Shown here: positions 940-34,323 of the stretch, piece after piece
Layout: every line of letters begins with the position of its first letter
Position numbering within the stretch: position 1 is the first letter of the stretch
IMG/VR virus record: IMGVR_UViG_3300042691_015370
Span: 64,001-128,000 of that record
Length of the DNA: 64,000 nucleotides
Origin: a virus
Reading direction: 5' to 3' (one strand)
Program-made: the position numbers and the translations under genes
The notes under the pieces: model-generated
The model's input: only the letters and a program-made list of their open reading frames with translations
Told to the model about the DNA's origin: nothing
Databases searched by the model: none

Positions 940-1361
940 GAAACATACTCTCCAACCAACTGAATAACAACATTCTCATGTCCAGAAGCTACCAAACTTC
1001 TGATAAAAACAGGCTCAAATGGAGAAATGATAGGTGGGTTATTACTTCTTTCACTCATAAAAGTAAAGGTGGTCTGATATTTCCTAGGAGAGAGTGACTT
1101 CACTGCAAGTGACGTTTCCTGTCGTGGATCATCTAGACGAATGACTTGCAACAAACCCCAAAATTCGTCAGTAGGCGGTAAATTGCTAGCGGTAATAGTT
1201 CCACCAGTCAAAAGCAATGATCGTGCCGGGTACCACAGTCCAGAGTCCGAAACATCAAGCGGGCCATATAGGCTAAAGGGCGGAATTGTAGCGTATTCAC
1301 GACGACGACTACGAGGACGTGCAGGAGACTCGTCGCGAGTAAAGTACATTTTCATGATCAA
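936..1361 (-). CDS. Hypothetical minor tail/virion protein
   Basis: Coupled by overlapping stop/start to both neighbours; beta-rich composition; tail cluster. Confidence 0.55.
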   Translation of the reverse strand: MIMKMYFTRDESPARPRSRRREYATIPPFSLYGPLDVSDSGLWYPARSLLLTGGTITASNLPPTDEFWGLLQVIRLDDPRQETSLAVKSLSPRKYQTTFTFMSERSNNPPIISPFEPVFIRSLVASGHENVVIQLVGEYVS

Positions 1362-3727: not shown

Positions 3728-4552
3728 TCAGGTCAACCTTACGGAAATAGGATCTGCCTCACCAATAATATAAGACTGACCATTTAACAGTGTAGTTTCT
3801 GGAACATCAATATATGCAAGCAGTGGGGGGTCCGTCTCACTAGCATAGAATCCAATATGATTAAAAGAAGGCCAATCGCCTGTGGCGGTAAATGTGACTA
3901 TGTTGCTTTGCGTTTTGGTCGCCGGTAAAGTAGCTGTTGCCATAGACCATTCAATAAGTTGACGGACATAGCCATCGCCTGAAACTTCGGTAATATCTTG
4001 ACCATTGATATCAAGAAGTGCAACATAAAGACCAGACTCAGGACTCAAAACACTATCAAGAGCAGAGCCAGCGTATTCTGGAAGGATACGCGAATCAAGA
4101 AGATTCATCTCTGCTGTAGATTGATTATCCATATACCAAATTGGTGAGTTAAGACTAGCGTCACGAGGAACAATAAACTCTGCGAGCACCCTCACAGTAT
4201 CACCCGACACAACAGAAAAAGCAGGGTCAATTGGAATAGTGATCCAAGGTGCCCCACCGCCAGTAGGCGTAGACCACAAGCCTAAACCCACAATTGAACC
4301 CCAATTGGAGCCAGCGACAGGAAAGTCATAGTACGTAGGACTCAGACGTTCACAATAGCGTGAACCAATAGTACCTGACCACTGCATTAAAACCCTAGAG
4401 TAGTTACTGCCACCTGAAGTGGATACCTCTGTACCCGGAACATCTAAACCACTTGAGGGCAATGCTGTTAAAAGCCCAACATAGAATTCATCACCAGCCG
4501 AGCACCATTGTTGCAAAATCTGTTCATCAAAGGTAGATTCATTAGTAAACAT
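3728..4552 (-). CDS. Minor tail protein with two tandem copies of a common phage tail-fibre-base domain
   Basis: Duplicated pattern YV[GA]LL...TEVS..G.Y.R..[IM].W...F..A...W....G. Confidence 0.65.
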   Translation of the reverse strand: MFTNESTFDEQILQQWCSAGDEFYVGLLTALPSSGLDVPGTEVSTSGGSNYSRVLMQWSGTIGSRYCERLSPTYYDFPVAGSNWGSIVGLGLWSTPTGGGAPWITIPIDPAFSVVSGDTVRVLAEFIVPRDASLNSPIWYMDNQSTAEMNLLDSRILPEYAGSALDSVLSPESGLYVALLDINGQDITEVSGDGYVRQLIEWSMATATLPATKTQSNIVTFTATGDWPSFNHIGFYASETDPPLLAYIDVPETTLLNGQSYIIGEADPISVRLT

Positions 4553-5393: not shown

Positions 5394-8300
5394 TTAATAA
5401 GGGTCGGGCAGGTTGAGAAAGTCGTTCCAAACAGTTGGACCCGGACCAGTACCCTCACTAATCATAGGAGGTGGAGGCGCTGGTCCGAGGTTAAGGTAAC
5501 TATCGTGTGGTGTCGTGCGAGTAGTATTCGTTCTCTGACCGATACCACCAGATCCATCTGAGTAAGTGTTTGTATTCTCACAACCGTCAACCTGATACCA
5601 GATATAGAACTCATCAATAGTAATTGAATCACCGGAACCGTATTCAATCGCCTCAAAATCAGACCAACGCACAGTCGCTGTTGGATCGTTACAACCAGCA
5701 AAGATTTCTGACCATACGGCGACACCGTGGATTCTGTCTCCATAAGCATAGAGGTCACGAATCGTAGTAGTCACATTAGTTGTCAGGTTAGTTATCGTGC
5801 AGCGCCAGCGCGTAGTGTTTGCTGGCTCGCCACCCTGATTTGCTACCTTAAACACACGGAATCTGTATTCTGTTGCTTCATTCCATGCATAGTTGCGAGT
5901 GTTGTCGTTGCTGGCAGCAGAAGGCAGTGATGAAGTAGACCCAACCAATTGCGATGGTAGGCCCGGACCAAATTCGGTCTGACCCTCATCACTAATGTAA
6001 CCACCCCAGTTGACGGCATTGTAATCAGGGTAACCATCAATCCACTGCAAGCCACAGTGACCGCCAGACAGCACCACATTAGAAGCATCGGTAAAGTCAA
6101 GCTGCATCGCCCAGTAATACAGGTCATCAACAGTGGGCTGTTCAACAACCTCAAGAGTAACGGATACCTCTTCGTACCGAATCGGTGGGTCCTTATGCCA
6201 CCAAGCGTGGAAGGAAGAGGCCGTGCCAGTTCCAGTGCCCGGACCAATTACCACCTCTTCAAATGGAGACGGAATAATTGTCACACCACCCGCTGGGTCA
6301 AGGTCTGAAGCGATGTCTACATCTTGTGTAGCAAATTCACTATTGACGCCAAGACGATCCTCAACAACCAGAACACGCGAAGTAAAGCCCTGCAAATGGT
6401 CTGGAGTGTAGCCCAAGGTGAGGAAAAAGTCTTGACCTGAATGGCGCAGAACGGCAGCGTTGTAAGTCTCTCCATCGTCCTCATACTCCAAAGGAGTGGC
6501 TGAGGTAAACGGCCACTTTAAGCCTCGTCCGAATGACTTGTAATTAACGCAAGGGAACGTAGTTTCATCATTACTGACAACAACTTCTGGATCGTCTACC
6601 CACACTCCCCACTTGGCTCCATTGTCAGACATCCCAACAATTCCAGAAGTGAAAGTTCCAGTGACCTGAAGGTCATATGGATTCTTTGCAGCATAACCAG
6701 ACAACTCAAGGCCACGATCAGTCTCACGCTGCCATGAGTCAAGCTGATCGGAGATCACAACGTAAGGATTTTCTACCGAGTTCTGCTCCACCCACTCAGG
6801 GCCAGTGCCGGGAGTAGTGGCGTTGTCTGCAATCGTGGAAATGTAGGTTACACCATTGTAACTTACACGAGCGCCCGTTCCATATCCGCCTTCCTTCTCA
6901 GCGTCCCATGGCTCACCCTCAGCAGTAGTCACCAGCACCCAGTTATCAGCGGACCCAAGCCAGTGAGTCTGAAGATCCATGATATAGGTACCATCATCAA
7001 GGTTCATCCGAGTAGTGATCCCCTGAATTCTATGAATAAAAGTCTCGCTCGTGGAACGCTCAATTAAACGTACCTGATCATCTACGTCCAGACAAGGATT
7101 AGCTGTGGCTGTAACGGTACCAGTACGACCAGCAAAGTAGTTGTGAATACCTATAACCTCAGCCATCAACTTACGTTCATCAGCGTTCTCGAAAACGTGA
7201 GAAGTCCAGATAGATGTGCGTGGAATGTGACGACTGCTCGGCACGCCCGGTCTGACCTCTTCGTTAGCGAATGGAGGGAAGTGTTGCACATGCCCAGTAC
7301 GGCTTATGTCCTGAGGGTCAGGTGTCTCGGTGCCGATCAAAATCTGCCAACGCTTATCAGTGTTATTGATAGTGGCAGAGTATGACATAAGATCCACTTC
7401 TTCATGAATCTCTGGAATAAAGGGCTGAGCACCAGTATCCTCTACCCATTGCTCTGGGATGCGGAAAACTTCCCCATCTTCTTCATAGGTCCAAATACGC
7501 CAGCCATTGTAGTCAAAGTTGCCCGATCTCCACCAGTTAGGTGAACGGAACCTAAGTCCACCCTCCTGATCAACGTACACAACATAACCAACCACTTCAG
7601 CAAGCTCACGAATAACGTCGATAATGTACTTCTTGTCCCACTTATCGCCCTGAATCTCAATGTCTTGCTTAATGGCGGTGGTTTCAATACCACCAAGCAT
7701 ATTGATCTGCTCGTACTGCTCTAGTGTACCTGCGGTATTAGAGGTTGGATCATAGTTTCCGTACTCATCAACGGTATAGCCCTCTGGCGCAGTAACTTGA
7801 ATACTGCTCTGATCCTTGATCTCTTCAAAGAAGGTAAAGCCCGCCCACATAGCAAGCTCTTTCACAATCTGTGCGTAGTCACCATCAAAGTTACCCTCAT
7901 GCCAACGATACCCAGTCAAACCATTCCAACCGGGGTTACCCCAGTCGGTCGCCTCATGGAAGTACACCTCACCATCAGCACGCAAAACCCAGTAACCACG
8001 ACCATCTTGGTCACGAGCCATTGAATAGAACAATCTCTTGTAGTAATCCAACTCTGGATCTAGACGTGAACCACCAACGGCTACGTTGTTCTCAAACTGT
8101 TTGTTAATTGAATCAAGTTCCAGCGGACCCTTCGAAACCGCATCGCCAAAAGCAGCCACTAGACCCGAGTTAAACAGAATCCAATAGCCATCGCCAGTGT
8201 CTGTTGAAGTAATGTCTACCGCGTAATCAAAGAGCTTCAAAGTAAAGCTACTATCCGCACCTTCATTGTAGATACGATTTTTGAGTTCACCATGATGGAC

Positions 8301-10757
8301 GGCATCACCATAGGCAAAGACCTGACCACACTCATCAACTACCCAAAAGCCCTTTTTCTTTGGATGTGATTCAATGGCCGTACCCTTGCCGCCCACATAG
8401 TAATCTTTAGTATAACCATAGGAAACTCGGCCATAATGAAGATACTTAGTTTGGATACCCCTAAAAGCAGTAGCTGTAGGGTCATTGGGTCGTGGAGGAA
8501 TGTGTGACGGTAGTCCCTTAGGGTTATCAATCGCATCACCAAACGCAAAGACTGAGCCATTACTAAAAAGAATCCAGTAGCCATTACCGGTATTAGTAGC
8601 AGCAATACCATTACACGTCACTCTTGGGGCAGTGTCCCAAGCGGTGTTTATATTGCCATTATATTTCCAGTTTGGATCAATAGCATGCAAAACACCCTTA
8701 CCGTCATAGAATTCTTGTGCGCCACCCCGATAGATTTCGAGCCATTTGATACGCCAATCATAGTAACGCTGAGGACTGTTGACTACATAATCTGTTTGCC
8801 CATTGTAGCCTGTGTGAAGCTCAGCGTCACCATAAGCCTTGACATTGCCCATCCAGTCCACAATCCAAAAACCCTTACCAGATGGTGTTACGGCCATATC
8901 GTGAGCACGGTTCTGGGTCAGAGAATACACCTTGCCGCCAGCCAGTACCGTGTGACCCGTCTCACCCGGAGAACCGTCCAATGTGGTACCAGAAATGGTT
9001 GGTGTACCAGCCATGTAGGGATCAGTTCTGTGGTTGTAGAAGTGACCATATGGGGCTGGCAAAGCTCTGTAAGAAGCCTGAATGTACCTGCGCTCTGACT
9101 GAATGTCATCTAACGGGTCATAGCCCGGTGAATCAGAATCGAAGTCGGCAGCGTCACCAAAACCATGAATAGTGCCACCGTTTTCAAGCACCCAGTAACC
9201 ACGAGTTGGGTGAGGCTGAATACTCCATGTCCAAGTTACGTCATTAGCCAGTGCCTCATAGGGAGTCTTGTTCTGACCCAGACAATAAACCTGTACGGTC
9301 TTAAATCCTGCACGATACTGATCACCGGCAGAGTTTGGCATACCGGAGTAGTAGAAACGCTGAATGGAGACGCGAATCTTATCGACGTTGTTGAACTGAA
9401 CAAGTTCGCCCTCTTGTACTTGGATTTCTTTTCCATACAGTCTCTGATGTAAACGACGATCTGCCGGGTCTTCGCTGCCAGCGAGGACACCGGAATAGAA
9501 ACTTTCCTGCTCGCTAACCATTCGACGCAGTTCAATGTTGACGGCCTGTTCACCACGCTGAGAATCACCGCCCGGTGTAGTCTCTGGAATATAGGCTTCA
9601 GACACATAAGGAATGTCCTTACCTTGGCCCAAGGGTGCCAACACACTCTTGTTCTCTGTGATAGTGCCATTCACAAGGGTGCCCTCTGCCCACTCGCCAT
9701 CCACCATCACGGACACAAATATCTTGTAACCACCAGCCCATGCCGTCAGAGCAATAGAGCTAACGTTTTGTTCATGACCAGCAGGTATCTCCAACTCAAA
9801 CCAAGCAGTATCAGTTTCTAGGGGACCATCAATGCGACGTGGGAATGCTTCAGTAAGGTAGAAGTCTTGAATGTCACCATCAATAGCAGCAGCCAAAGCG
9901 TGCTCGCCGCCGATAAAAGGGTCACCAGCGATACCGTCAGCACTGGTGTTGCCGGGATTAACCTGTACGGGACCACGAGAACCGGGCGCTGAGGATGGGA
10001 CACTGCGGGCACGGGGACCCCAAAGAGAGTCGAAACGAGACTTGCCCGGTGGTACATACTCAAGGGGATACAGAGCGCTGGGAATGGTAGGAGGAAAGAC
10101 GATCTGATCAAGCAGCAGACGCCCAACGTCACGGCAGTTCAATGTCATAAGACCTTGACTTGTACCAATCACCGAATCAACTAGCCAAGCACCAGTCATT
10201 ACGACGTTGGATGTGGCTAAGTTATGATCAATCGACAAGAAGTTTCCGGGCTTAGGTCGCCCACCGTAACCCTGATATGTAAATAGTAACGCATCTTCTA
10301 CGAGGACGTTTCTCCACGAAAAATCATTGTCCCAAGTGCCATCTTTACGGTACGCACCCATGCTAGGACTCTGATTCCATGAAGGACCAGAGTCTCCGTC
10401 CCCCCGCTTGGGCCAGAAATATCCGGGCTTACCAAGCTGACCAGCAAGCTCTGGCTGTGCAGTATTGATTTCATGCCAAGCGTTATAGATCGTGATCTGG
10501 CAAGTAGCAATGTCTTGAGAGAGGCTGCGAGTAATCTGAATAGACTGAATGGACGGAATCTCATGCTCCACAGCCTCAGGATCTCTGTAATAGCGGTAGG
10601 AGCCTCGTACAGAGTTGCCATAGACCGGGCTGGTACTACGTAGCGTCCAGTCAGCCTGAACCGTTACACGCCCATTGGGAGCGCCCTCGTCGCCAATCAG
10701 TAAACCGCTCTGGATACGATCAAATATCTTGCGCTGAAGTGCTGCTGTCCATCTCAT
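5394..10757 (-). CDS. Large tail tip/hub protein with beta-propeller, CBM5/12-like and lectin-like C-terminal domains
   Basis: Start at ATG 10757 (ATGA overlap); hub-like segments (DVIRELAEVVGYVVYVDQEGGLRF; NPCLDVDDQVRL); six GYW..GxV.AFGDA repeats; WDAEKEGGYGTGARVSYNGVTY...PGTGPEW carbohydrate-binding motif. Confidence 0.75.
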   Translation of the reverse strand: MRWTAALQRKIFDRIQSGLLIGDEGAPNGRVTVQADWTLRSTSPVYGNSVRGSYRYYRDPEAVEHEIPSIQSIQITRSLSQDIATCQITIYNAWHEINTAQPELAGQLGKPGYFWPKRGDGDSGPSWNQSPSMGAYRKDGTWDNDFSWRNVLVEDALLFTYQGYGGRPKPGNFLSIDHNLATSNVVMTGAWLVDSVIGTSQGLMTLNCRDVGRLLLDQIVFPPTIPSALYPLEYVPPGKSRFDSLWGPRARSVPSSAPGSRGPVQVNPGNTSADGIAGDPFIGGEHALAAAIDGDIQDFYLTEAFPRRIDGPLETDTAWFELEIPAGHEQNVSSIALTAWAGGYKIFVSVMVDGEWAEGTLVNGTITENKSVLAPLGQGKDIPYVSEAYIPETTPGGDSQRGEQAVNIELRRMVSEQESFYSGVLAGSEDPADRRLHQRLYGKEIQVQEGELVQFNNVDKIRVSIQRFYYSGMPNSAGDQYRAGFKTVQVYCLGQNKTPYEALANDVTWTWSIQPHPTRGYWVLENGGTIHGFGDAADFDSDSPGYDPLDDIQSERRYIQASYRALPAPYGHFYNHRTDPYMAGTPTISGTTLDGSPGETGHTVLAGGKVYSLTQNRAHDMAVTPSGKGFWIVDWMGNVKAYGDAELHTGYNGQTDYVVNSPQRYYDWRIKWLEIYRGGAQEFYDGKGVLHAIDPNWKYNGNINTAWDTAPRVTCNGIAATNTGNGYWILFSNGSVFAFGDAIDNPKGLPSHIPPRPNDPTATAFRGIQTKYLHYGRVSYGYTKDYYVGGKGTAIESHPKKKGFWVVDECGQVFAYGDAVHHGELKNRIYNEGADSSFTLKLFDYAVDITSTDTGDGYWILFNSGLVAAFGDAVSKGPLELDSINKQFENNVAVGGSRLDPELDYYKRLFYSMARDQDGRGYWVLRADGEVYFHEATDWGNPGWNGLTGYRWHEGNFDGDYAQIVKELAMWAGFTFFEEIKDQSSIQVTAPEGYTVDEYGNYDPTSNTAGTLEQYEQINMLGGIETTAIKQDIEIQGDKWDKKYIIDVIRELAEVVGYVVYVDQEGGLRFRSPNWWRSGNFDYNGWRIWTYEEDGEVFRIPEQWVEDTGAQPFIPEIHEEVDLMSYSATINNTDKRWQILIGTETPDPQDISRTGHVQHFPPFANEEVRPGVPSSRHIPRTSIWTSHVFENADERKLMAEVIGIHNYFAGRTGTVTATANPCLDVDDQVRLIERSTSETFIHRIQGITTRMNLDDGTYIMDLQTHWLGSADNWVLVTTAEGEPWDAEKEGGYGTGARVSYNGVTYISTIADNATTPGTGPEWVEQNSVENPYVVISDQLDSWQRETDRGLELSGYAAKNPYDLQVTGTFTSGIVGMSDNGAKWGVWVDDPEVVVSNDETTFPCVNYKSFGRGLKWPFTSATPLEYEDDGETYNAAVLRHSGQDFFLTLGYTPDHLQGFTSRVLVVEDRLGVNSEFATQDVDIASDLDPAGGVTIIPSPFEEVVIGPGTGTGTASSFHAWWHKDPPIRYEEVSVTLEVVEQPTVDDLYYWAMQLDFTDASNVVLSGGHCGLQWIDGYPDYNAVNWGGYISDEGQTEFGPGLPSQLVGSTSSLPSAASNDNTRNYAWNEATEYRFRVFKVANQGGEPANTTRWRCTITNLTTNVTTTIRDLYAYGDRIHGVAVWSEIFAGCNDPTATVRWSDFEAIEYGSGDSITIDEFYIWYQVDGCENTNTYSDGSGGIGQRTNTTRTTPHDSYLNLGPAPPPPMISEGTGPGPTVWNDFLNLPDPY

Positions 10758-11155
10758 CCTAGATCCTCGGTATTGCTCCAATCGACCACGATCCCGCTAA
10801 TGCTGAACTCGTGTCGCCATGGATACTCAACGGTTCTAACTCTGCGGGGATCAAATGATGTGAACACAACCCAATACGATCTACCGAGATCGTCAGTCAC
10901 CTTGATCTGCTTATCCGTCTGAGTCCACGCACGTAGCGCATTGTATTGATCTTCGGTCAACAATGTTCCAGAAAGTGTCATGCTCTGCTCACGGTTACGG
11001 CCCTGAAACAGCACGGGACGGCCCCGAGTGATCGGCGTCGGTGTCAAGGTCTTTTCAATAGAGGGCATTGTAGTATCTTTGGGGTTGATCTCTAACTCAT
11101 AAGAGAGAGAGGCGTGAACATCCTCAAACAGCCACGGTGTACGTTCTGATGGCAT
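10754..11155 (-). CDS. Distal-tail (Dit)-like protein, paralog 2
   Basis: Position after TMP; shares NP...TDDLGR.[YW].V...SF..RR..T...HE pattern with 11155..11586. Confidence 0.6.
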   Translation of the reverse strand: MPSERTPWLFEDVHASLSYELEINPKDTTMPSIEKTLTPTPITRGRPVLFQGRNREQSMTLSGTLLTEDQYNALRAWTQTDKQIKVTDDLGRSYWVVFTSFDPRRVRTVEYPWRHEFSISGIVVDWSNTEDLG

Positions 11156-11596: not shown

Positions 11597-14500
11597 TCAG
11601 TAGTGAGGCTCGTAAGAGCCTCTAGTGCCCGGAACGCCCATGAACTGGATCATCACGTCCATGAACTGCTGGAAGTCCATGCCGCTATTGATCGTCACGC
11701 CACCCATGTTCAACTGACGCCCATCAGTATAACCCATCGCCTGACCGCCAGCATTATAGGAAGTCTGCTGGTTCATGCGGCGAATCTCGTACACTGTTGG
11801 GAGGCCCAAAGTTGATGGCATGTTGATCGACAGATCAGAACTCATATCATCCTTGAGGCGCTTCAGTTCAAGCTCAAGTTCCTTGAACTTCTTGGAGCCG
11901 GGGATGACGGTAGACTGTAGGTTCTTGATGTGAGCCATGTACGTAGACTTGGAAATCTCGTTCATCTCTAGCATGTACTTGTACTCATCGTAACGGTCAG
12001 TATAGACAGCATCCTGTGCGGCCTTGTCTGCGCTAATAGCAGCGGCACGAAGCCTATTGATCTCAGCCTCACCCATACCCTGATCAATACCGTACTGAAG
12101 CTGAGCCTGAGCCTGCTGGCGAGCTACCTGAGCAGCACCAACCTCGTCTTCAATCGCAAGAAGTTCAGCTTGACGCAACTCCATAGCAGACGTGCGAATG
12201 TTTTGCATAGCATCAGCAGCCGTTCGCTGAGCATCAGCGAGTCTTGTTTCAAGATCGATAATTGCATCAATGTCATTAGCCTTCTTAGCATCTGCTAGAA
12301 GCTGATTGAGCATCTTGATGTTGTTATCAGACTGCTGCATTGGATCGCGAGTCCGAGCATTTAGCAGACCGAACAGTGCCTCTACACGAGCACGGTAAGC
12401 TTGGCGCTCTGCCTTAATGGCATTGTTGTAGGCTTCCTCAGCAGCCATGATCTCATCAATATCGCCACCCTTTCTTGCATCAGCAAGAATCTGAGCAGCA
12501 GCCTGAGTATCCATGTTTGCGTTGGCGAGATTGTCATTAGTTCTGGACTTCTTAAGCCCAAATAGTGCTCTCACCCTAGCCGCATACGCAGCCCTCTGTG
12601 CTTTTTCTGCTTCAAGTAGGGCTGTCCAAGCATCAGCATACTGAGCACTATCTTTGCCAAAGATTCTCTCCATGTCAGCAAGTGAATTTTGAGCAACAGC
12701 AACGTCGATGTTAGCACCTTGCAGCGAATCCTTAGCCAAAGCTTTAAATAGCCTACCAAGAGACTGCATTTGAGCATTGAGAGCAAGCTCAAATGCTCTC
12801 TGTAGTTCTAGTTTCTGTTCAAGAGCAGCGTTCAGTGCCGCTTCATCACCCTTACCTGATGCTACATCAATATCAAATTGATTGTTCAGCAGAGCACCGT
12901 AGGCTCGCTTGACGTCATTACCACCAGCCCAACGAGCAATATTGAGACTATTTCTAGATCTATTGACAGCAATACCTTGTTCAAACTCAGCTTTCTGAGC
13001 TTCACCAACCGCAACGTTAGCCTCATCCCATTCTGCTGTACCCGGAGCGTAACGATCTCTTGCAGCAATGGCCGCTAGAACGTTATTGCGAGCAATCTCC
13101 ATTGGGTTAAATGTACGTGAATTGGCAAGTCTAAATCTTCTAGTTGCCGAAGCTGTAATAGCGTCCATGTACTGACTCTGGGCAGCCCAATAAGCCTGCT
13201 CAGCTTCGTCTACATCGGCCTGAGTGGCTTCGCCCGCCGCAAAAGACTCTTTGGCCTTCTGCCATTCAATTGCAGCGGCCTCCCAGTTCGTTCTCGCCGC
13301 TCCCAGCGTATCGCCAGTAGCGGCCTGCTTCGCTCCCTGAGCACCTGCACGGGCAGCACGGGTACGTCGCTCTTGCTGTCTGCGGGCATTTCTGGTTTCG
13401 ATCTCGCTTTCTTCAACGTCAAAATTAGCATCTTCAAGATCATCAGCGTACTGCTGTTGAGCTTCCTCAGACCAATCTTCGCCGCCCCTTGCTTGAGCAC
13501 GATCTCTATCTCTAATGATTCTGTCACGCTTGTCGCGAGCAGCATTCTCTTCAGCCACAGCGGCCGCAACGGGGTCGTTGCTGCGCATAGCGTTGATTCT
13601 TGAACGCCTATACTCCCTATTATCCTCACGCTCTTCACCAGCCAAGATAAATGCATCTTCTTGACGCTTGAGATTTCTCTCAACCTCTTCTGGGCTAGGC
13701 AGATCCGGTGGTGGAGCTACGCCAGCAGGGAGCTTCACGTCCCCTGCCATGCCAACAAATTCTAACAAAGCATACAGGAACTGTAGATGCTCTTCCAGCT
13801 TCTTAATATCCTCTTCAGAAGCTTCTGGATCAGCCTTTAGTTCAGCTAGTTTATCCTTTGTGACGGCAAAACTGGACTTCAAGTCTCTTGTATTAGATGC
13901 ACTCAAAGTATTGTCGTCTAGATAGTCTCTGACAATAGACTCAGTAAATGCTTCACCACTTAGAGCAGACCTTGGAATCAGACCCTCACCAAATACTGAA
14001 TCTTCACCAGTTGGTGGCGTGTATCCAAAGTCCTTAACTAGCTGTGCAGTTGTTGCATTTCTACCGGGCTGAGCGGTACCCTGATCATCCTCAGCTATCC
14101 ACAATTCCTTATCAGCATCATAAGTGTAATTTACATTCGCCCCAAGAGCATCTTTTCTTGAGAACGTATCTCCGTCAGCGGGTCCAGCTTCATTGGAACC
14201 AGACCGTGCGCGAATAGCATCATAGGCTTCGATACCAGCGGCAAAAGCTTCCGAAGCCTTAAAACTATCTGTAATAACTGCATTGTTTGCAGCACGCAGT
14301 CCCTCATCTTGACGCATTCTTTCAATGACAGATGCATCATCTGTAGTATTGGCAAACAAGCTTGCATAAAAAGCCTTCTTAGCGTCAACTACCTGTGCCG
14401 CTACTTCTAGCCTTTGATCACGATCATCAAAAGACGCATTGTTAAGCAAGTCTACATAAGCGCTCAATTGAGCAGCCTGAATCCCAGCCTCAGAGGCACC

Positions 14501-17500
14501 AAATATCTCCATCATCTGGAGAGATCTATCAACCTCGCCCCTGAGAGCCTGAGAAATCTGTTGCTCAGCCTGACGCTTAGCCTGAGCGTATGCTTGAAGA
14601 TCTTCTTCTGAAGGTGCCGTGTCACCGCCATACATCGACTGGCGCATCGTTCTCAATGCTTCAGTGGACTCTTCGATCAGCCCTTTAGTGCCCGTTCTAC
14701 CAGCGCTAAATCGACTAGAAGCCTCTGTAATATCAAAGTTAAGGCGCTCGGCCCTCGTCATATCCTCTAGCTTGGCTTCACGCATCTTGCGTTGAGTTTC
14801 AGGATCATCAAGCGAAACCTGAGCAGCCTTTTCCAAACCAGCCCGAATGCGTGCAACCTGATCCTCGTTAAGATTGCCTTCGGCCTGCATACGTTCAAGC
14901 TCAGCTTGTGGATCATCGGCGGTAATAACCTCAACAACTTCAGCAGACATATTGTCTGGATTCTGATATCCTAATGCTTCAGCGTAGGCAGCCTTAAGTG
15001 CAGCCTCATTATCAGAAAGACGTTCTGTTCTTAATCTTCCACTTGAACCACCAACAATACCATTATCATCAAAAATTTGATTTAGTAATGATTGCTCATT
15101 TTTAGCCCTACGTCGAAGTGACAAACGAGCTTCGTCAATATTTTCGCGCTGCATTTCTTGAAGTGCAGGGGATTGCCGTCCAAAAGCTTCACGAATCTGT
15201 CTAGGAGTAGCGTCTCTGCCGGGTCGAGTGCCTCGACTTCCACCACCAGCAATCGCTGCACCACCAGCAACCCCACGATCGTTAAAACCGCCACTCAATG
15301 CAGCAGTCATTCCAAACGTCTGGAAATAAACCTCTCTTGCAATTTCTGGATTGGCTCGCAAATCGTCTAGTGCAGTGGCCCGTTCAATCGGGATCTCTGC
15401 AAGCACGGCCTGACCACGCAAAATACTCGCTTCAGACTCACGGTTAAATATGGGTCGCCACCAGCGGTCCCAGCCACCACGATCCGACTCAGCGGTTCTT
15501 GCTTGGGATCTTAATTCGGCCGCACGCTTTGACAGTGCCGACTCTGACCCATCTATACCAAGAGCGGCAAGCTTACGTGCCCCTTCATTACCTTCCTTGG
15601 AAGTTTCATAAAGCTCACGCAATGCGGCAGTATCTTGATCTAGCATGCTGTTTACGGCGCTATAAGCTGCCGTAAGAGCCATAATCGCAATAAATGGATT
15701 AGATACCAGACTACCTACAGCGCCAGCAAGGGCCGCTGCTCCACCGCCACCAATCTTCGTAGCAGCCGTACCTACACCCGCTCTCAAACCAGCCTGAATC
15801 TTGCCAGTACCAGAATCTGGCAAGATAGGACCGGCTAGTCTGACCCCACCACGACCAATCGGTGCCCCGGAACGATAATTTTCGTATCTGGCGGCGAATC
15901 CACCAGCGCGATCGTACATTCCTCTCTGAATATTCGACCTATACTGAGCAAAGGAGTCAGGTGCCCAGACATTGCCAGCCATGCGACGTTGCTCGGATGT
16001 TCCAGAATAAAGTACTTGAGACTTGCCATTTTCGTCTACAGCATATCTTGCCCCAGTTGGAGTAACAGCATAGTAGCCACCCTTACCATCAGGCATAGGT
16101 TTAGCAACTGCGTCTGATCCATCTGGATACTTTGTAGGATCTAATACAGTAGCCTTGCCAACAGGTGAATAGAAGCCACCAACGCCCTGTGTCATGGCTC
16201 CTGTGTAAATAGCGTTAGTTCTGGTCATCACCTCCCCACCGTGCTGGATAGCCATACGCAGAAGCTTCCAAGCGGCTACGGCACCAAGAATCTTAGCTGG
16301 TGTGCCGCCCAGAATCTCATTGATGAAAGTAAACAACTTAGCAACAGGAGAGATAACGGTTGCCAAAAGTTTAAGGCTATCAATTAGAACCTTAAACATA
16401 TCCTCTAGACCAGCGTCCAGAGCATAAACCATAATAGTACGGAATTGCTCACCAAGAATTCTCATCTGCGTGGTAAGCGTTTCCTTCTGTCGTTCAAATC
16501 TCTTTTCTAGCGCTCCCTCACTATCTGAGGCACGGGCCTCAAACCTTTCCGTGTTCTGTGGCTTAGCAAATGCTCCAATAACCACACCAGCTTCACGACG
16601 GCCACCAAGCAGTTGATATAGCTGCTCTTCAGATTCCTTACTGATATTTGGCAGGGCTTGAGGCAGTGCCTTAAAGACATCTGCTGTAGTTCCTTCACGC
16701 AATGCATCAATAAAATCTGGACCAAAGCCCGGATCTTTATACGCAAGCTGGAGAAGAGCGTCCTTATTGCCGGGAACAGATGGCAAAACTCGACCCAACT
16801 GCTCAGCAAGAGCGCCACCGGTACGACCAGATGTCTGAGCAATGGTTGCACCAATGGCAATAATTTCATCTGACGTAAACCCAGACTGCTTAGCGATAGG
16901 AGCAATACTTGACAAGAACTCAACCTGAGAAGCTACGTCAACACCAGACTCTGAAGCTACTGCCGTAAGCTTGTTGCCAATAAGCTCATTGCTCTCTCCG
17001 AAAGAGAGGCCAATCGCAATAGCCTGATCACTCAGAGTCTTGGTCGGCAAGTCTGCGACAACCGCAAGCTTCGCTGCGGCTTCTCGCTGCTCCTTAACCA
17101 ACTCTTCGCCCGAAATCGACCTATCACCAGCACCCTTAATCGTTTCTCCCAAAAATGCGCCTCTAATAGAGATCTCCATTTTTGCGATCTCATCAGCGCC
17201 GACACCAGTTTCCTTCGAAAGATCAACGATAGCCTGTTTAATGCCATCAATCTTGCCCTTAGCGTCTTCACCAAATGTTTGCGCTAGCTGCGAGTCAAGG
17301 CGTGCTAGCGCAAACTTGAGTTCTTCAGCTTCCTTGAGAGCGCCAACAAGACCAGCCCCAACACCAAACAAAAGCATAGAGGGCAAAGCATACTTCATAC
17401 TTTGAATTGCGCCCTCACCAAACCAACCGCCCAAGCTGTCATCGCCTCGCACAGCTTGGCGGAACGCCGTAAACCGACTTGGCTTACCATTATTGCCATA

Positions 17501-20500
17501 AAAACGACCGCCACCGCCGTACCCACCATAGCCGCCATAGCCGCCACCGCCGCCGTATCCACCACCCATTCCGCCACCAGCAGCAGTGACAGGATCTGAC
17601 AAACGACCAGTTCTTCTAAACTCTTCATCAAGAATTTCTTGATCAGAAAGGTTAAAGCTCTTCTTTAATCTTTCGTACTGAGCGGCAGCTTGAGCTTGTT
17701 GTTGAGCAACATCTTCTGGGCTACCAGCACCGGGACTGAACGCCTGACCCAGAGCGCCGTATGCTCTTGTAGCTGCCTTCGCTCTTCTCTCTTGCCACCT
17801 AGCAGCACCCTCGTCTGCACTCAGTTCACCTGAAACGACGTCATCCCAAATGTCGGCACTCTTGCCCTCTGGGAACAGTCCTCTGCGAGCAGCAGCTTTT
17901 TGTCTTGGGGTTAAGGCTTCCCAATTACCATCACTCAAGTTACGCGCAGCCTGACGCTGGTCAGCAGCGAACTTGGCCTTACGGGCAGCAGCGTCAGACT
18001 CGGCTTTACGATCAGCATCTGCCGTTTCATTTTCGGCCCGAGCACGACGACGTTGCTCTGCTTTCTCCTGTCGCCGTTTTTCGTTCGCTTCGGCAGCCGC
18101 AGCAATAGCGGCTAGACGATCAGCTTCAGTGGCAGGACCGACAAAAGGAGTGCCACCACCATCAATAACATTAGTACCTGCACCCAGTGCTCTGCGCTCT
18201 GCGAGTCTAGCTCTTCTTGCTTCAATATATGGGTCTACTGGAGGTAGAGCAAGAGGCTGTCGTGGCCCATAAAGCGGAATTGGCACACCAGTACCCGGAA
18301 TGTCGGTACCAATCATTAACTCTCTAGCAGAGAAGCGGCGCTGTTCAGGGGTAACTCCCGGCCCCAAGGCAAGAGGTGTTGCAGATCTACCGAGTGCCTC
18401 AGCAGCGGTTGCAGCAGCATCAGTGCCCACAGCAACTGCATGCATCTCAAGAGCCGCCGTGTCCGCAAGGAGAGCTAGCCTCAGTTCTGATGCAGTAGCT
18501 GTAAGGGAATCTAATTCACTGACAAGAACGGCTCCAGAGACTCCCGTGGCAGTAGTACGAGATCTTGCTACTTCATTAGCTCTTGTGAAAATAGCGATCT
18601 GTTCTGGTGTGGCTTCTCCCGAAGCAACTAGGGGTCGCAATTCAGCAAAGTACTCACTTGGAGATAGCTTTGACTGACTCGTTGGGAACAGTGCGTCGGG
18701 ACCACTTAGTCTGTCACCTCTACCAACAATAATCCCCTGATCTTCAAGGATCTGGCGATAAGCTGGATCTAGACCCAGCATATTCTCCATACGATGCTGA
18801 GCTTCGTGCAGGGCTGTAGCCGGTCCAGCGCCGAGAGTTGCTGCACCAGCAGCACCAACCTCACGACTCGTGCCTCCACTAGCTACCCAATCGTCAACAC
18901 CAGCAATCATCTCTGAGTTCATTACCCAGCGACCATCACCCGTCATTGCCCCTAGACGGCCACGGAACTCATCGCTTAGTTCTGAAACAACCTCGGTTCT
19001 TAGATCACCCAGCAGGTTAGGTGCCCCTGCTTGCATAGAACGCATGTATGCTTCAATACCAGATGCGCTACCCAAAATGTCAGGACGACGAGGGGTGCTA
19101 TAAGCGTCAGAACCGGGACCAAGCTCTGGCGGGCGCTTGCCTTCTTGACTTCTGCGAAGTTCTTCCTCTACCTGCTGACTAATTACCTCTGCACTTGGCA
19201 TAAGGCTAACTTGTCTTGGGCTTGGCCCATAAATGGTGCGGTAACCATCATTTCCATAGTAATGAGACAACTTACTGGTGCCCGTCAGGCCCCAGTTTTG
19301 AGACACCGCCTCTGTGTCGTAAAGCGATCCGTAGCTTCCAGACTTAGCATCTAGCCATTCATTATAGGCTCTAATCATCCTTTGTCGAGTACGAAGCGAG
19401 TGATCATATATGTTGTCACGGAACCCTTCAATCCACTGTACATCACCCTCGTCCTCAAGCTGCATTTGAACGAAGTTGATAGCATCAGAAGATTGGGTTT
19501 TACGGTATCTATTGGGACGACTGAATGCTGTCTCACCAGAACCAAGCTCGCCCCTGAAAGGTGGTGGGAAGAGTTCGCTATATGAGAAGGCTCCCCTGAA
19601 GGGTGGTGGCTGTGTTCTGTAGCTTGGCAGTGGCGGAGGAATAGGTCCAGTGTAAGGTGGTAGTCCCCAACCGGGGCCTGAGTATTCGGGACGAGTAACT
19701 CCGGGCAGAGAACCAGTATAAGGAGGCGGTGTTAAAGCTTGCTTATTAGCATCCCATTGAGCTTCAAAGATCTTGTACTGAGCCTCGTCGTCGGTCAAAA
19801 TGCCACGACGAATCATGCGCTCAATACTTGCGGCCGCTGTTACACTAGAATCACGAAGCCGCTCCAAAGACTCTCGCAAATTGGCAGGTACCTCAAGCCG
19901 ACCAGCAGCTAGCCTCTGCTTTTCTGTCCATTCGCTACTATCATCAACGTCGGAACCAGCAAACAGCTTGTTCCACATGATGTCTTTGACACGCTTCTGT
20001 TGAGCAATCTGCTCGGCAGTGCCACGACCAACATCGTAACCAATAACCTCTGCACTAGGTACAGGGCTAAAACGAGATACCCGTCTTGGAGAAGGACCAA
20101 TAACGTTACCATATAGATCATAAGAAAGACCTATAGTACTACCGCCTAGCCCTTCACGAGCCAATCTTTCTTGAATTGCTCCTTGTCGCTGACGGCTTCT
20201 AGGGAAAGCTTCTGCAATTTCTGCACCCGGCTTATTCTCTGTTAGCATGAAGGGCAATGCAGCGTCTTCTATAGCCTGCATGGCAAGGAAGTTCATGTAG
20301 TCAGAAGACTGCGGCCTATTCGGAGTGCTGAAGATAGTGCGGCCCGTGCCTAGAGCAAGCTGCTCACGCACGAAGGAGTCAGTATCAAGACCATACAGCC
20401 AGTCTTTAAGCTCCCTGTTACGAGGACTCTTGCTCAAAACTTGTCCGAAGATATCACCCTCATTGCGAGAAACAACATCACGAACATTCCGAGCAGCCAA

Positions 20501-23500
20501 GCTTGGACTACCGCCTCTACCCAATTCTGAGTAAAGATCAATGAGAGTAAATCCAGCCCTAGGATCGTACATAAAGTTACTAGCTGAACCAGTGTCTGGA
20601 CTAAGGCCCCGCATTCCAACCGCAATCAGAGATTGCAGCATGGCTCGTACCTGAACGATCTCAGGCACAATACCCTTACCCTGCCCAAGAGCCATACCGG
20701 GCGCTAGGCGAGTAATCGGGTGACCGAGCTTATCGACAGCAGCAAGTTGCTCAACACCCGGAATGCCGATTACTTGCTGTAACCCTCTAGTACGCTCTAG
20801 TAGTCGAGCATCTGCAACTTCTGGGAACTCTCCAGTACCCTCATACAGCATCTCATAAATTGAGGGGTTCTCTGGCAGCGGCTCACGCCAAACATAAGAA
20901 GATTTGCCTGCTTTGAATCCATAGGCAGCAGCCTGTGACCCAATACCAATGGGTGAACCAAGAATCTTGCCACGATAAGCGAGAGCCAACTCTTTATCAA
21001 GAGCGGCGCGTTCTTTCGATCTGGCTAGCTGCGCAGCAAGACGTGACTGAGAGGGATCACTGTATTGAGTTGAGGCACCGGGCAGTGCAAGACGTTCAGC
21101 AACACTGCGAGAAATAAGGGGAGTCGCAAGAGCTTGAGCTTCAACCAAAAGAGCCTGAGCTTCAGGACCATCAAGTCTACGCAGTCGTTGAGCGAGGTCC
21201 AAAGAGGCTTGCGGCACTCCCCTTATTTCTCTAACAGATTGGGCAGCATTTTCTACATTACCAAGAGCTTTTTCGACCAAACCGCGCTTACTGTATTGAC
21301 GAGGCAACATATCAAGCTGATAGTCAATAGATGTAAATCCTCTATCGCCCGTAGTGTCGTAGAGAACATTCTTCCAATGACCGTCGCCATGGATACCCCG
21401 CAAACCCAAAGCCGCTTGAGTCCTGAAAAGCGCAAGAATCTCATCCTTAGTGGGGATGTTTCCGAAATACGTTCCCTCGTTTTGTCTATCAACTATTTGC
21501 TTAATAGTTTGGCCGGGGGCACGACGAGTAATTGGCCTACCATCACTAACGGCAACCAACTGCTCCGCACCCGGAATTCCAATAGCCGCCTTAAGACTAT
21601 CTAGTCTAGAATAGATGTTTGGATTTAGCCTTCTGATATCTCTTCTTGCAACATACTCTTGCGAACCCGCAGCAAAACCATAGGCGGAACTGTTCATACC
21701 AGTACCCAACGCCTCTTGGGTTAAGTTTCCACCTCTCAATATTTCATTTAGTGCCAAGCGATCAGACGAACGTTGCAGTTGTGTTATGAGACGAGCATTA
21801 GAAGGAGTACTGTAAGCGTCACGCGGCATGCCAATAGCGAGGCGCTCATCTCTGGCCCAACGTTTTTCAAGATTGAGTTCACGAGAACCCATTGCCATAG
21901 CTTGCTTATGAAGCTTATTGAAGTCCAGTGCCATACCACCAAACTGTTGGCGTAGCGGCTCATACGCTTGAGTGAACCAAGCACGGGTAAAATCATTGGA
22001 CATCTGCGGGAAGGCAAGCTCAGTGGCTGCGACTTCGGCCGTCAATTCATATGGAGTTGCTCTAGAGTAGTTGCTTGGTACAAATCCTGTACCACCAACA
22101 AGACTTCTTCTAGACTGATCTTCAAACGGTGCGCCGGTCCATCTACCGCCAATGTCCGCAATTAACTGTTTACGGTTTTGTGGCACGGGCAGGAAATGTC
22201 CAGCCTCATGAGCAAACAAGGTGCCAAACAAACCTCTACCAACAAGTGCGTTTTCATTATTAACACTCTTGGGCTGTAAACCGCCGAAAAGACGACTACG
22301 AACACCCATAAATCTAGGAGCAAACCCAGACTCACCGAGCATCCTGCCATACTGCCTTTCCCAAGGACTATTAGCATCGGAAGCTACCCTAACGCCCAAG
22401 GCACCGAACTTTGCTACACCAGAACCAAAGCGGCTATCATAGTCAGCCATCATGGAAGCCAAAACAGGCATTGGAGCATTGGCAAATGGCCGTCTTAGCT
22501 GCGTAAGGTCAGTGCCCTTCTTGAGGATATCGGTATTAAAAGTACCATTGAATACGCTATTAAGCGCATCAAGACTTGTTTGGTTAATACTTCGAGATAC
22601 ACGCGTTCTACGGGGACCGACATCATCAAACGATGGGAAGGGCTGGATAGGGGCGAACCGGCTCGTTTGAGAAAAGGCTTGAGGGTACAAGAACTTAGCG
22701 GCAGAAACCGCTTCACGCTCACTGCTAAAGTTTGGAATAATCTTCGCAGCTTCACCGAGTGGATTAAAATTACCTGCACTAGAGAGCATTGCATCAACAA
22801 GTGCTGGCGCATTTCTAAGAGACTTAGCCCTAGCACGAGATGCCATAAACTGCGTCGGTCCATGCCATTGCTCAATAGATGGATCAACAAGAGCTTCTAG
22901 TTTGGGTAGAATCTCTCGGTACTCACGAGTCCGCTGTAGCTGTTGCTCAAGACGTTGCGAGATTGTGCCCGATCGTGGCGTCGAATAAGCGGTCTGCCCC
23001 GCACCAAGCGCTGGGATGCCAAGGTCAGCCAAAGGATCATTTGAACGAGCTTGAAGAGCTAGACGAGCACCCTTGCTAATAAGTCCAGCGTCACCAAGCT
23101 TGGTAATGTCAGCTTCCCAGATACGGCCAGAGTAGAACTTATCACCAGAGAGTCTACCGTCTAGCAATCTACCGGGCTGCACCATACGTGCAACACCGGC
23201 GTTTGCAAATCTCTCCCATAGCGCATTAGCCTGCAATGACACAACATTATCAGACCTTGCCGTAGTAACGCCAAGCCCTGACATCAGCCTTAGCATACTA
23301 TCAATGTACATCCCAGAGCCAAGACCACGACCCCGAGCGCTCGCATCAAGTGAACTTAATGCAACACTAGCAGTTGATGGTTGCCGTACATTTGGAACAT
23401 TCCAGTCAATAAAGCCACGGGCAGAATCACCGGGCTGTCCAAAGTTGTAGTTAAAGGATAGTGGAACGGTAGAATTCTGTAGCGGTGAACTATAAGCATT

Positions 23501-31742: not shown

Positions 31743-31942
31743 ACACCTTCTTCTTCAAATACACTTGGATCTACATAATACGTAGGCTCTATAACCTCGT
31801 AAGCGCCTAAAGTTCCTTCTGGAATAAGATCCTTCATCGATGCCGGAATCCCATGTAATATAACGCCACATTGATTCGCAATTGCTGTTTCACGCACCGC
31901 ATTAGATGTTGGTAATGGTTCATTCGTAATCCAGAATTTCAT
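31739..31942 (-). CDS. Small hypothetical (fibre-associated) protein
   Basis: ATGA-coupled between two fibre genes. Confidence 0.55.
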   Translation of the reverse strand: MKFWITNEPLPTSNAVRETAIANQCGVILHGIPASMKDLIPEGTLGAYEVIEPTYYVDPSVFEEEGV

Positions 31943-34323
31943 GATGCCCCCAGAAGAACAAGCGTATTACCAGCAGAACCATTTGTTCCAGCAGTTCCAG
32001 TTCCGCGACCAGATGCTCCAGTTCCACCATTTACCTGAAGTGTGAACGAGTGCGAAGTAGAACCAGTAATTAAAGCAATGAATCCACCACCACCACCAGC
32101 CCCACCACCGGTATTGTTATTGTCAGCCGTCCGCTGCGCGCCATCGCCGCCGTTGGCCCTGATAGTGCCACTCCCAGCTACTTCACGGGCCTTGATGAAC
32201 AAGAAGCCACCCCCGGCGCCGCCACCGCCGCCAAGCGCAGAGCCATTACCACCACCCGACCCGCCGCCGCGACCCGCACAAACAATGAGAGGCGAAGCCG
32301 AGTTACGAGAGAAAACGATACCTTGCTCCAGCATAACGACATGCGACCTCAACGCCGCTTCCGTGGTTGACGACAAGGTTGCAGCAACACCTGAGCCACC
32401 ACCTGAGCCACTAGATCCCGAACCACCAGTTCCTCCTGCACCACCGAAGGCAATAATATTGCCATTCAAAGGATTGGTGGTTGGTGATCCGGCAACACCA
32501 GCAGTGCTTGTTCCTGTGCCACCCGCTGCGCTGTTGGTACCTGTACCGGGGGCAGCTATAAAGCTTCCGCCAGTCACACCGCTGGCACTGCCGCCGTTGG
32601 CGCTAATGGTGCCATTTACAGTCAAAGTTCCTGACACATAGATAATCCCATGGACCGTCAACACGACGCCCGGATCAATGGTCAAGTTACGATAGTGTTT
32701 GATACCATTGCCAGTGTAAAAGTTCGAAGTAATGGTGGTATCAACAGCAATAGTAACATCACCATCAGCACCAGTTCCAAAAGCCACCGATGGACCAACT
32801 GCGCCATCTACGCCATCTACGCCATCAGCGCCATCAGCGCCATCAGCACCGGCTGGGCCGGGATCTCCTTGAATGCCCTGAATGCCCTGTAAACCTTGCG
32901 GGCCAATCAAAGAAACACCACTGGGCCAAACTCCAGCAGCCTTAGGTCCAAACAGATAGTTAGTATCTGTTCTTATGTAGAAATCACCGTCTACTCCTTG
33001 AGTTGTGGGATCAACCGTTCCGTGTAGAACAGTCTTGCCGTCAACTCCGTTCGCACCTGCTGCGCCATCTGCGCCAGCGGGACCGGGGTCGCCCTGTGGC
33101 CCCTGTGCGCCATCTGCGCCAGCGGGTCCCTGAATGCCCTGTATACCCTGAATACCTTGGATGCCCTGAATACCCTGTTCTCCCTGTGGTCCCTCGGGAC
33201 CAATCAGAGGAAGGCCCGCAGGCCAAATTCCAGAAGCTTTAGGGCCAAATAGTGTACTCGTATCAGTCCTAATGTAGAAGTCTCCATCAACTCCTTCGGT
33301 CGTAGGATCAACTGTACCATTCAGAACAGTTTTACCATCTACACCATCTACACCATCTACACCATCGTTGCCGGGTGGGCCTTGTTCGCCAGTAGCACCA
33401 GCAGGGCCGGGATCTCCTTGTATCCCCTGTATTCCCTGTTCGCCCTGAATACCTTGAGTTCCTTGTATACCTTGCTCTCCCTGAGCGCCTTGAGGACCAA
33501 CTAAAGAAGCAAGCCAATCCTGCTCAGTCCCAACAAAACCATTGGCAACAGCAACCTCGTAAGCCGATAGACCATCGTCTCCGTCTATTCCCGGCTCACC
33601 TTGTATGCCCTGTACGCCGGGATCGCCTTGAGGACCGGGATCGCCTTGTGCGCCATCATTACCCGGTGGACCGGGATCACCGGGTAAGCCGGGTTCTCCC
33701 TGTGGTCCCTGCTCTCCCTGTGGACCTATAAGAGATACCCCAGCAGGCCACACGTCAGCAGCTTTGGGACCAAAGATAGTACTAGTATCAGTGCGGATAT
33801 AGAAATCCCCATCTATACCCTCTGTAGTTGGATCTACTGTGCCACTCAGAAAACCGCCGCCACTACCACCAGACGGACTAACGTTTATGACACGCCAAAC
33901 TCCAACATAACGAAGCAAAATAATGGCGGTGCCGTTAGGAACGACCAACTCTGTGACCATCTCGTTGCTGACGTTAAAGATCACCTCGTCATTCTCATGA
34001 GGAATGACAGTCAAGTCGTCCATCCATGCAGAGATCACAAATGCCTGTGGGGTTTCGGGCTGAGTACTGATCTCTGGGAGATTAATCGTGCCTGTGCCAC
34101 CGACAACACCATCTGTAGCAGCAAGCGTAACTGTATCTCCCATAAGAGTTTGTTCTGAAGGCAGGAACAATGCCTCACCGGGTGGACCGGGGTCGCCCTG
34201 TGGGCCGGGATCGCCGGGGTCACCGGGAGCACCAGCAGGACCGGGAGGACCCTGTTCACCGTTGACAAACACCTCAACCGGCGATTCCGTAGGTATGACG
34301 ACGACTACTGTTTCATCAGACAT
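31939..34323 (-). CDS. Collagen-like fibre protein with Gly-rich C-terminal domain
   Basis: Long Gly-X-Y tracts separated by three copies of GTVDPTT.G.DGDFYIRTDT..[IL]FGPKA...WP.G..LIGP. Confidence 0.85.
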   Translation of the reverse strand: MSDETVVVVIPTESPVEVFVNGEQGPPGPAGAPGDPGDPGPQGDPGPPGEALFLPSEQTLMGDTVTLAATDGVVGGTGTINLPEISTQPETPQAFVISAWMDDLTVIPHENDEVIFNVSNEMVTELVVPNGTAIILLRYVGVWRVINVSPSGGSGGGFLSGTVDPTTEGIDGDFYIRTDTSTIFGPKAADVWPAGVSLIGPQGEQGPQGEPGLPGDPGPPGNDGAQGDPGPQGDPGVQGIQGEPGIDGDDGLSAYEVAVANGFVGTEQDWLASLVGPQGAQGEQGIQGTQGIQGEQGIQGIQGDPGPAGATGEQGPPGNDGVDGVDGVDGKTVLNGTVDPTTEGVDGDFYIRTDTSTLFGPKASGIWPAGLPLIGPEGPQGEQGIQGIQGIQGIQGIQGPAGADGAQGPQGDPGPAGADGAAGANGVDGKTVLHGTVDPTTQGVDGDFYIRTDTNYLFGPKAAGVWPSGVSLIGPQGLQGIQGIQGDPGPAGADGADGADGVDGVDGAVGPSVAFGTGADGDVTIAVDTTITSNFYTGNGIKHYRNLTIDPGVVLTVHGIIYVSGTLTVNGTISANGGSASGVTGGSFIAAPGTGTNSAAGGTGTSTAGVAGSPTTNPLNGNIIAFGGAGGTGGSGSSGSGGGSGVAATLSSTTEAALRSHVVMLEQGIVFSRNSASPLIVCAGRGGGSGGGNGSALGGGGGAGGGFLFIKAREVAGSGTIRANGGDGAQRTADNNNTGGGAGGGGGFIALITGSTSHSFTLQVNGGTGASGRGTGTAGTNGSAGNTLVLLGAS

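Follow-up and report, generated by a model that had tools for sequence, protein, structure and literature searches.

Two tandem kinase-like modules in the cargo region of a giant phage tape measure protein

In a 64,000-nucleotide stretch of the virus record IMGVR_UViG_3300042691_015370 (hereafter the window; bases 64001-128000 of an IMG/VR record of 144,887 bp that is 89% complete), we found two consecutive kinase-like modules inside the giant tape measure protein (TMP) of an uncultured phage. Both modules lie in one uninterrupted open reading frame (ORF) on the minus strand, P0001, which encodes 4,466 amino acids (aa), and both precede the TMP core. A structural model gives module 1 a kinase fold, and its paralogue, module 2, is predicted to share it. 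Considering residue conservation, the model and the analogy to known systems together, we regard it as somewhat probable that both modules are ATP-using enzymes that travel with the TMP and modify the host.

RESULTS

Two paralogous modules and their family

When P0001 was compared with itself by masked BLAST, aa 1051-1200 aligned with aa 1301-1463 (35% identity, E = 6.7e-21), and a second alignment paired aa 1103-1225 with aa 1356-1487 (E = 5.5e-16). Consistently, a MAFFT alignment of module 1 with module 2 gave 39% identity over 275 columns. At the sequence level, the resemblance of the two modules is thus far beyond chance, in agreement with an earlier note on this stretch that had proposed them to be tandem paralogues. 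All ten peptides quoted in that note were present in one minus-strand frame of P0001, i.e., at aa 1097, 1115, 1139, 1203, and 1221 in copy 1 and at aa 1350, 1368, 1410, 1467, and 1483 in copy 2. Its coordinates, 20360-21802, correspond to aa 1066-1546; we have reset the limits of the modules to aa 1051-1548. A chance likeness to kinase motifs was rejected as an explanation.

A profile built from the two modules and searched exhaustively with HMMER against 1.84 billion representatives returned no more than 18 hits. The best two are themselves giant TMPs, namely P0002 (3,639 aa, E = 2.5e-47), which carries two kinase modules, and P0003 (4,213 aa, E = 5.6e-31), which carries one; this single module is 40% identical to module 2 of P0001. 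The other 16 hits are short proteins in which the match covers the hinge-to-catalytic region, and their weak Pfam matches are confined to the kinase clan (APH, ABC1, Pkinase, Kdo, and RIO1). A tandem arrangement also occurs in P0004, a non-TMP protein of 592 aa, in which the family hidden Markov model (HMM) recognized two kinase-like modules at aa 83-324 and 330-585.

Module 1 adopts a kinase fold

We modeled module 1 with AlphaFold2 on an alignment of 18 family sequences, from which the P0002 modules were left out. The resulting model had a predicted local distance difference test score (pLDDT) of 79.6 and a predicted template modeling score (pTM) of 0.77; prediction from the single sequence (pLDDT of 37) was useless. 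In the model, the order strand-strand-strand-helix-strand-strand (strands at module residues 45-49, 53-60, 63-70, 97-101, and 104-108; helix at 77-88) is followed by a helical lobe. The IDY motif leads straight into a helix, with no activation segment, and three more helices follow the ID motif.

All matches listed by Foldseek for this model in the PDB were kinases, with Rio2 (1tqi, E = 8e-7) at the top and PRPK among the best. Likewise, all 50 matches listed by a VIA search, which is independent of Foldseek and covered 48,161 chains, were kinases; they include Wee1 with the highest score (Z = 13.6) and Rio2 (Z = 13.4), and NleH1 (4lrj_A) was matched with Z = 11.6 and a root mean square deviation of 3.4 Å, covering 151 of the 160 chain residues. 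The 18-sequence family profile, compared with all PDB sequences, placed NleH1 first (E = 5.4e-5, 144 of 169 residues), followed by NleH2 (E = 4.9e-4), a type III effector kinase (E = 6.6e-4), and thereafter kinases only. More specifically, the alignment of the profile with NleH1 paired the motifs GxGxNxxxY, V-x-K/R, D-x4-N-x-LYD, and ID. An OspG kinase cluster was returned by the ESM Atlas at 0.95. A phmmer search of aa 1050-1546, i.e., of both modules, against the PDB found nothing real.

We consider the kinase fold of module 1 settled. Module 2 probably has the same fold, as suggested by its 35-39% identity to module 1 and the motifs that the two share. The kinase-like reading of the earlier note is therefore upheld by the structure prediction and Foldseek comparison that it had called for, and by the VIA and profile searches. 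Two existing Pfam families were considered and rejected because neither model matches: OspG_kinase (PF22303) gave no match at E ≤ 1 to either module or to the 18 family members, and none in a six-frame scan of the record at E ≤ 10, and Kinase-PolyVal (PF18762) matched neither the complete phage record nor a single member of the family.

Active-site residues are conserved, with Arg and Lys alternating at beta3

To count residues, we used an alignment of 22 domains found by the family HMM (two each from P0001, P0002, and P0004, one from P0003, and 15 single domains). All five TMP-borne domains retain the GxG of the Gly loop, whose counterpart in the NleH1 alignment is GKGGNAVVY. Two residues, the Asn of the catalytic loop and the metal-binding Asp of the ID motif, are present in every domain (22/22), and the catalytic Asp in 21 of them, the remaining one having Glu. 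A Gln (Q96 in module numbering), positioned at the start of the fourth strand, is also invariant in the family. Alignment with NleH1 places the Gly loop, the catalytic Asp and Asn, and the metal-binding Asp where the earlier note had located them.

The same alignment bears out the observation that the beta3 Lys is replaced by Arg in both copies (YVARR and YVWRE). The profile consensus, Vvr, faces VLK of NleH1, and Arg1118 and Arg1371 fall at its Lys, so that neither module has the beta3 Lys/alphaC Glu pair. Across the alignment, Arg stands here in 13 domains, among them all five TMP-borne copies, and Lys in the other 9. Because of this distribution, we take Arg to be a family trait, and from the sequences we read the change as a family-wide alternation and a tolerated variant, not as decay. 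The earlier note had called copy 2 the more degenerate one; this description did not hold, and the idea of a decayed copy was rejected, since module 2 keeps all family-invariant residues and the His of HGD that it is missing is absent from most of the family.

P0001 is the tape measure protein of the phage

Searches of the uncut P0001 sequence against Pfam and PHROGs gave no match; the protein was cut into pieces before the library search, and the TMP core was detected only then. On aa 2545-2894, TIGR01760 matched with E = 1.3e-15 (57-59 bits versus a cut-off of 28.8), and P0001 was further matched by PF10145 (E = 6e-12, 46 bits versus a cut-off of 33) and phrog_28 (E = 2.4e-14). When the whole 144,887-bp record was scanned with TIGR01760, P0001 was the sole match (E = 2e-17). 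A hydrophobicity scan revealed two segments, one (aa 2536-2554) overlapping the start of the core and the other (aa 3087-3111) about 190 residues downstream. The core-domain matches, the single copy in the record, and the two hydrophobic segments identify P0001 as a TMP, and it is the only TMP of this phage. The modules accordingly lie inside a tape measure, as the earlier note had stated. Tail-fibre genes are located upstream of P0001. Nearly all long ORFs of the window are on the minus strand, and they include the large terminase, tail-fibre proteins, and a ribonucleotide reductase.

Two further features of P0001 concern the regions flanking the core. A Gly/Tyr-rich low-complexity stretch, GGGMGGGYGGGGGYGGYGGYGGGG (17507-17578, aa 2474-2497), is found just before the first hydrophobic segment and the TMP core, and may be a flexible hinge from cargo to ruler. 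The C-terminal ruler part (12248-12586 and 13079-13336, aa 3888-4250) contains internal repeats of about 50-85 aa each; for example, aa 4138-4187 and aa 4201-4250 are 46% identical by self-BLAST.

The kinase-like modules belong to a linker-delimited cargo array

The cargo modules of P0001 are fenced by seven copies of a linker, L-x-x-G-x-x-x-x-[YF]-S-x-P, at aa 502, 671, 1062, 1312, 1556, 1825, and 1966. In P0003, the module borders carry a variant linker, P-x-[PQ]-[EQ]-V-Y-N-x-P. P0002 and P0003 are collinear with P0001 (N-terminus, kinase module or modules, TMP core, and C-terminus), and P0003 is 54% identical to P0001 over the N-terminus and 71% identical over the C-terminus. The cargo common to the three proteins consists of the kinase modules and HExxH motifs, the latter numbering two in P0001, two in P0002, and one in P0003. 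The single kinase module of P0003 is followed by a linker and then directly by an HExxH module, whereas that HExxH module comes three linkers later in P0001. Because module order differs between the two proteins by linker-bounded units, modules appear, from the sequences, to have been gained or lost at the linkers, which could be recombination joints, processing sites, or both.

The two HExxH modules had no Pfam match and no usable PDB sequence match; weak ESM Atlas leads pointed to zincins (ATLF and Peptidase_M90). For a putative GNAT module in the cargo, the PDB sequence search likewise gave nothing usable. Right after the kinase modules, we noted a second paralogous cargo pair on the minus strand (20030-20353 and 19169-19546; aa 1549-1656 and 1818-1943), with 37% identity (self-BLAST, E = 2.5e-8) and the motifs SSDxxNF and YGPSPRxVS..PSAEVI. 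A Pro-rich stretch (aa 1756-1819) separates its two modules. The coordinates of the kinase-like modules, their active-site segments, the linkers, and the HExxH motifs are collected in Table 1.

Table 1. Location of the modules, motifs, and linkers of P0001 in the window
Feature	Window position	P0001 residues (aa)	Strand	Description or basis
Single uninterrupted ORF P0001	11597..24997		-	4,466 aa; TMP, its core preceded by ~2,500 aa of cargo modules
TMP core domain	16316..17365	2545-2894	-	TIGR01760, PF10145, phrog_28
Kinase-like module 1	21098..21847	1051-1300	-	Linker, N-lobe, catalytic core, three C-terminal helices; family HMM 167 bits
Kinase-like module 2	20354..21097	1301-1548	-	Paralogue of module 1; family HMM 182 bits
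Module 1, Gly loop (GTGMNSSAY) through beta3 (YVARR)	21641..21709		-	Arg1118 for the beta3 Lys; sequence, model strands, profile
Module 1, catalytic segment	21320..21391		-	HGD (Asp1205), Asn1210, IDY (Asp1225); D155, N160, D175 in module numbering
Module 2, Gly loop (GIGSQAAAY) through beta3 (YVWRE)	20882..20950		-	Arg1371; sequence, alignment
Module 2, catalytic segment	20534..20599		-	Asp1468, Asn1474, IDL (Asp1487); sequence, alignment
Linker before module 1, LAIGMPRDAYSTP	21803..21841	1053-1065	-	Motif copy
Linker between modules 1 and 2, LALPGASTQYSDP	21053..21091	1303-1315	-	Motif copy
Linker after module 2, LALGTGRTIFSTP	20321..20359	1547-1559	-	Motif copy
HExxH motif HEAGH	22196-22210	930	-	Motif
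HExxH motif HEAQH	18794-18808	2064	-	Motif

The family is rare, and its tandem pairs probably arose more than once

Among the 1.84 billion representatives, the combination of a TMP with kinase modules was found, besides P0001, only in P0002 and P0003. A word-indexed homologue search with a 13-sequence alignment returned no additional sequence, and no relative was found in IMG/VR by a single-protein scan or by a degenerate DNA pattern for YDPxxGFTxIDY. GenBank phages gave no DNA match, and tblastn of the modules against 50,697 phage records detected no similarity. A scan of genome contigs with the TMP C-terminus revealed no prophage relative. The sole deposited phage relative is the uncultured GX15bay, from mangrove soil (44% identity for the terminase and 26% for the TMP core), the TMP of which has 2,098 aa and carries no kinase, HExxH, or linker motifs. 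The family is thus rare and is covered by no Pfam model; its nearest solved relatives are NleH1, NleH2, and OspG.

The two modules of P0002 come out as sisters in a maximum-likelihood tree (support of 94/94), as do those of P0004 (99/98). In contrast, module 2 of P0001 groups with the P0003 module (99/97), and module 1 of P0001 joins them next (93/88). Judging from this tree, tandem pairs probably arose three times, although with moderate support and with gene conversion as another possible explanation.

DISCUSSION

A proposed pair of host-modifying enzymes carried by the tape measure

The explanation that we prefer, i.e., ATP-using enzymes carried by the TMP and directed at the host, would work as follows. 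The two modules are kinase-like cassettes in a linker-delimited cargo array that lies between a conserved N-terminus and the TMP core. Two HExxH-motif modules and a further duplicated module are part of the same array. The TMP, placed in the tail lumen, would be the first component out at infection, and its cargo would follow into the cell, entering in extended form and then refolding. The HExxH modules may cut the cargo at the linkers, and the kinase modules would use ATP to modify host proteins ahead of all phage gene expression. The T7 kinase suggests, by analogy, defence, translation, or transcription factors as candidate targets. Both catalysis and injection are steps that we infer; we would give catalysis by the modules roughly an even chance.

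Several observations weigh against this explanation. Substitution of the beta3 Lys by Arg is a standard inactivating mutation in classical kinases, and the usual alphaC Glu partner is not evident, the residue aligned with the NleH1 Glu being Arg in each of the five TMP-borne domains. No Pfam, PHROG, or NCBIfam model recognizes either module, and the structural model, which covers module 1, was built on 18 sequences only. Delivery would require unfolding and refolding, because a folded domain of 250 aa cannot pass the tail tube. Finally, two standalone relatives reside in ordinary bacterial gene neighbourhoods, indicating that the family is not intrinsically an injected effector.

Alternative explanations

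It is conceivable, although we consider it rather unlikely, that the modules have a kinase fold and transfer no phosphate to proteins, being instead pseudokinases, nucleotide-driven switches, or ATPases (RIO or Bud32/PRPK-like) that serve in docking to a host protein or in TMP/tail assembly. Because Lys-to-Arg inactivates classical kinases, the Arg at beta3 in both copies is the main argument for such a role, joined by the lack of an evident canonical alphaC Glu. Rio2 and PRPK, both among the best Foldseek matches, are minimal kinases that lack an activation segment, and module 1 itself passes from IDY directly into a helix; moreover, binding of NleH to RPS3 is independent of kinase activity (PMC12756638). 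However, the Asp, Asn, and Asp persist in a family whose members are only 20-25% identical, as would be typical of a functional active site, and beta3 varies between Arg and Lys from member to member with all else unchanged.

The modules might also be phosphotransferases of the APH, Kdo, or choline-kinase type, acting at entry on a small molecule or on the envelope, e.g., on lipopolysaccharide, a cell-wall precursor, or a signalling nucleotide. TMPs do carry envelope-active enzymes, the catalytic loop of module 1 shows a weak match to APH(6) (E = 0.099), and weak APH and Kdo/WaaP matches occur among distant relatives (22.4 bits versus a cut-off of 21.3 for Kdo/WaaP). We nevertheless regard this as very unlikely: the best solved sequence relatives are the protein kinases NleH1 and NleH2, protein kinases and RIO lead the structural matches, and the modules have no large helical substrate lobe like that of APH-type enzymes. 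Similarly improbable, in our estimate, is a cargo that never reaches the host, whether the N-terminal 2,500 aa are removed at tail assembly or serve only to scaffold it or to lengthen the ruler. Processing in the course of assembly occurs in some TMPs, and seven linkers together with two HExxH motifs would permit cutting at any stage; furthermore, the closest deposited phage, GX15bay, does with a TMP devoid of such cargo. Conservation of enzyme-like active sites in three giant TMPs is, in contrast, hard to square with a pure spacer, and the N-terminal enzyme of gp96 in phage P23-45 is still present in the virion and is put to use in the infected cell (PMC10770324).

Comparison with known systems

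The closest counterparts of the modules themselves are NleH1 and NleH2 of enteropathogenic and enterohemorrhagic Escherichia coli (EPEC/EHEC; PDB 4LRJ and 4LRK) and OspG of Shigella, minimal kinases without subdomains VIII-XI (PMC12756638). Like the modules, they have a minimal fold of about 160-200 aa and the motifs GxGxNxxxY, D-x4-N-x-LYD, and ID, and they are pushed by a nanomachine into another cell, as by analogy the modules would be. They differ in having the beta3 Lys where the modules have Arg with no evident alphaC Glu, and in being carried by a type III secretion system; as the carrier of the modules is a phage tail ruler, the target cell would here be a bacterium. Relative to NleH/OspG, the modules also have about 70 extra helical residues past the ID motif, stand in tandem, and are not matched by PF22303.

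Polyvalent proteins offer a second comparison. They include kinases lacking the C-lobe, GNATs, and self-processing metallopeptidases, and are predicted to enter the host with the DNA (Iyer 2017, PMC5512222). As in P0001, reduced kinase domains of the Ser/Thr/Tyr type are found in very large multi-domain phage proteins alongside metallopeptidase motifs. The polyvalent kinase family is reported from (pro)phages of Verrucomicrobia-Chlamydia and Bacteroidetes, and tape measure proteins are unmentioned in that account (PMC5512222). Polyvalent kinases have an insert between His and Asp, whereas the HGD of module 1 is uninterrupted and most of the family lacks the His; their conserved Gln lies in the last N-lobe strand, and the invariant Q96 of the modules starts the fourth.

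As to the carrier, gp96 of the Thermus phage P23-45 (also in P74-26, G20c, and TSP4) is a TMP of 5,002 aa with an N-terminal virion RNA polymerase. This enzyme has been shown experimentally to be part of the virion, and 5 min after infection it is at work on phage DNA (PMC10770324). Like P0001, gp96 is a giant TMP, and it combines an N-terminal enzyme with a metallopeptidase and membrane segments, an arrangement that P0001 is predicted to share; by analogy, no other known system is as good a precedent for delivery. Its cargo is, however, a two-barrel RNA polymerase rather than a kinase, and it has no linker-delimited array of multiple cassettes; no sequence relation to P0001 was seen, no comparison aimed at one having been made. 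A functional model for the modules is provided by T7 gp0.7 and JSS1_004, phage kinases that act on many host proteins, the T7 kinase disarming host defences by pervasive phosphorylation (PMC13645617). In contrast to the carriage proposed for the modules, these kinases are expressed as early genes and are not virion-borne.

Our literature searches found no paper describing a kinase inside a TMP. The earlier note's judgment that virion-delivered kinases fused to a TMP would be unusual needs tempering, as gp96 (PMC10770324) and the polyvalent kinases (PMC5512222) are precedents. The carrier principle and injected, stripped-down kinases are thus already in the literature; what is new is the kinase family itself, its location within a TMP, the repeated occurrence of tandem pairs, and the alternation of Lys with Arg.

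Significance

If the modules are active and delivered, the phage would own ready-made kinases at time zero of infection, earlier than kinases of the T7 gp0.7 type, which must be expressed, can act. TMP-fused enzymes, of which the virion RNA polymerase of P23-45 is the single proven example, would then come to include host-modifying ones. For kinase biology, the family offers a natural interchange of Lys and Arg at beta3 with the catalytic Asp, Asn, and Asp fixed, and recurring tandem pairs that are probably independent in origin. The profile-level tie to NleH/OspG is a testable lead on the source of those minimal effector kinases. The most far-reaching combination, in which kinases with Arg for Lys are active, are delivered by the TMP, phosphorylate host defence or translation proteins before phage expression, and belong to a prokaryote-directed kin ancestral to OspG/NleH, is in our view unlikely to hold as a whole.

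Other features of the window

No tRNA genes were found in the 64-kb window. Downstream of the TMP, beyond two small ORFs, a minus-strand ORF of 1,795 aa (5394-10781) has no Pfam or PHROG match and may encode a tail tip or hub protein. Farther along the same strand, a protein of 274 aa (3728-4552) matches Pfam Gp80 (fiber I protein, podophage GP4; E = 4.7e-18), an unexpected kinship for a phage with a giant tape measure. A collagen-like tail-fibre protein of 794 aa (31939-34323, minus strand) has many PHROG tail-fibre matches, the best with E = 2e-33.

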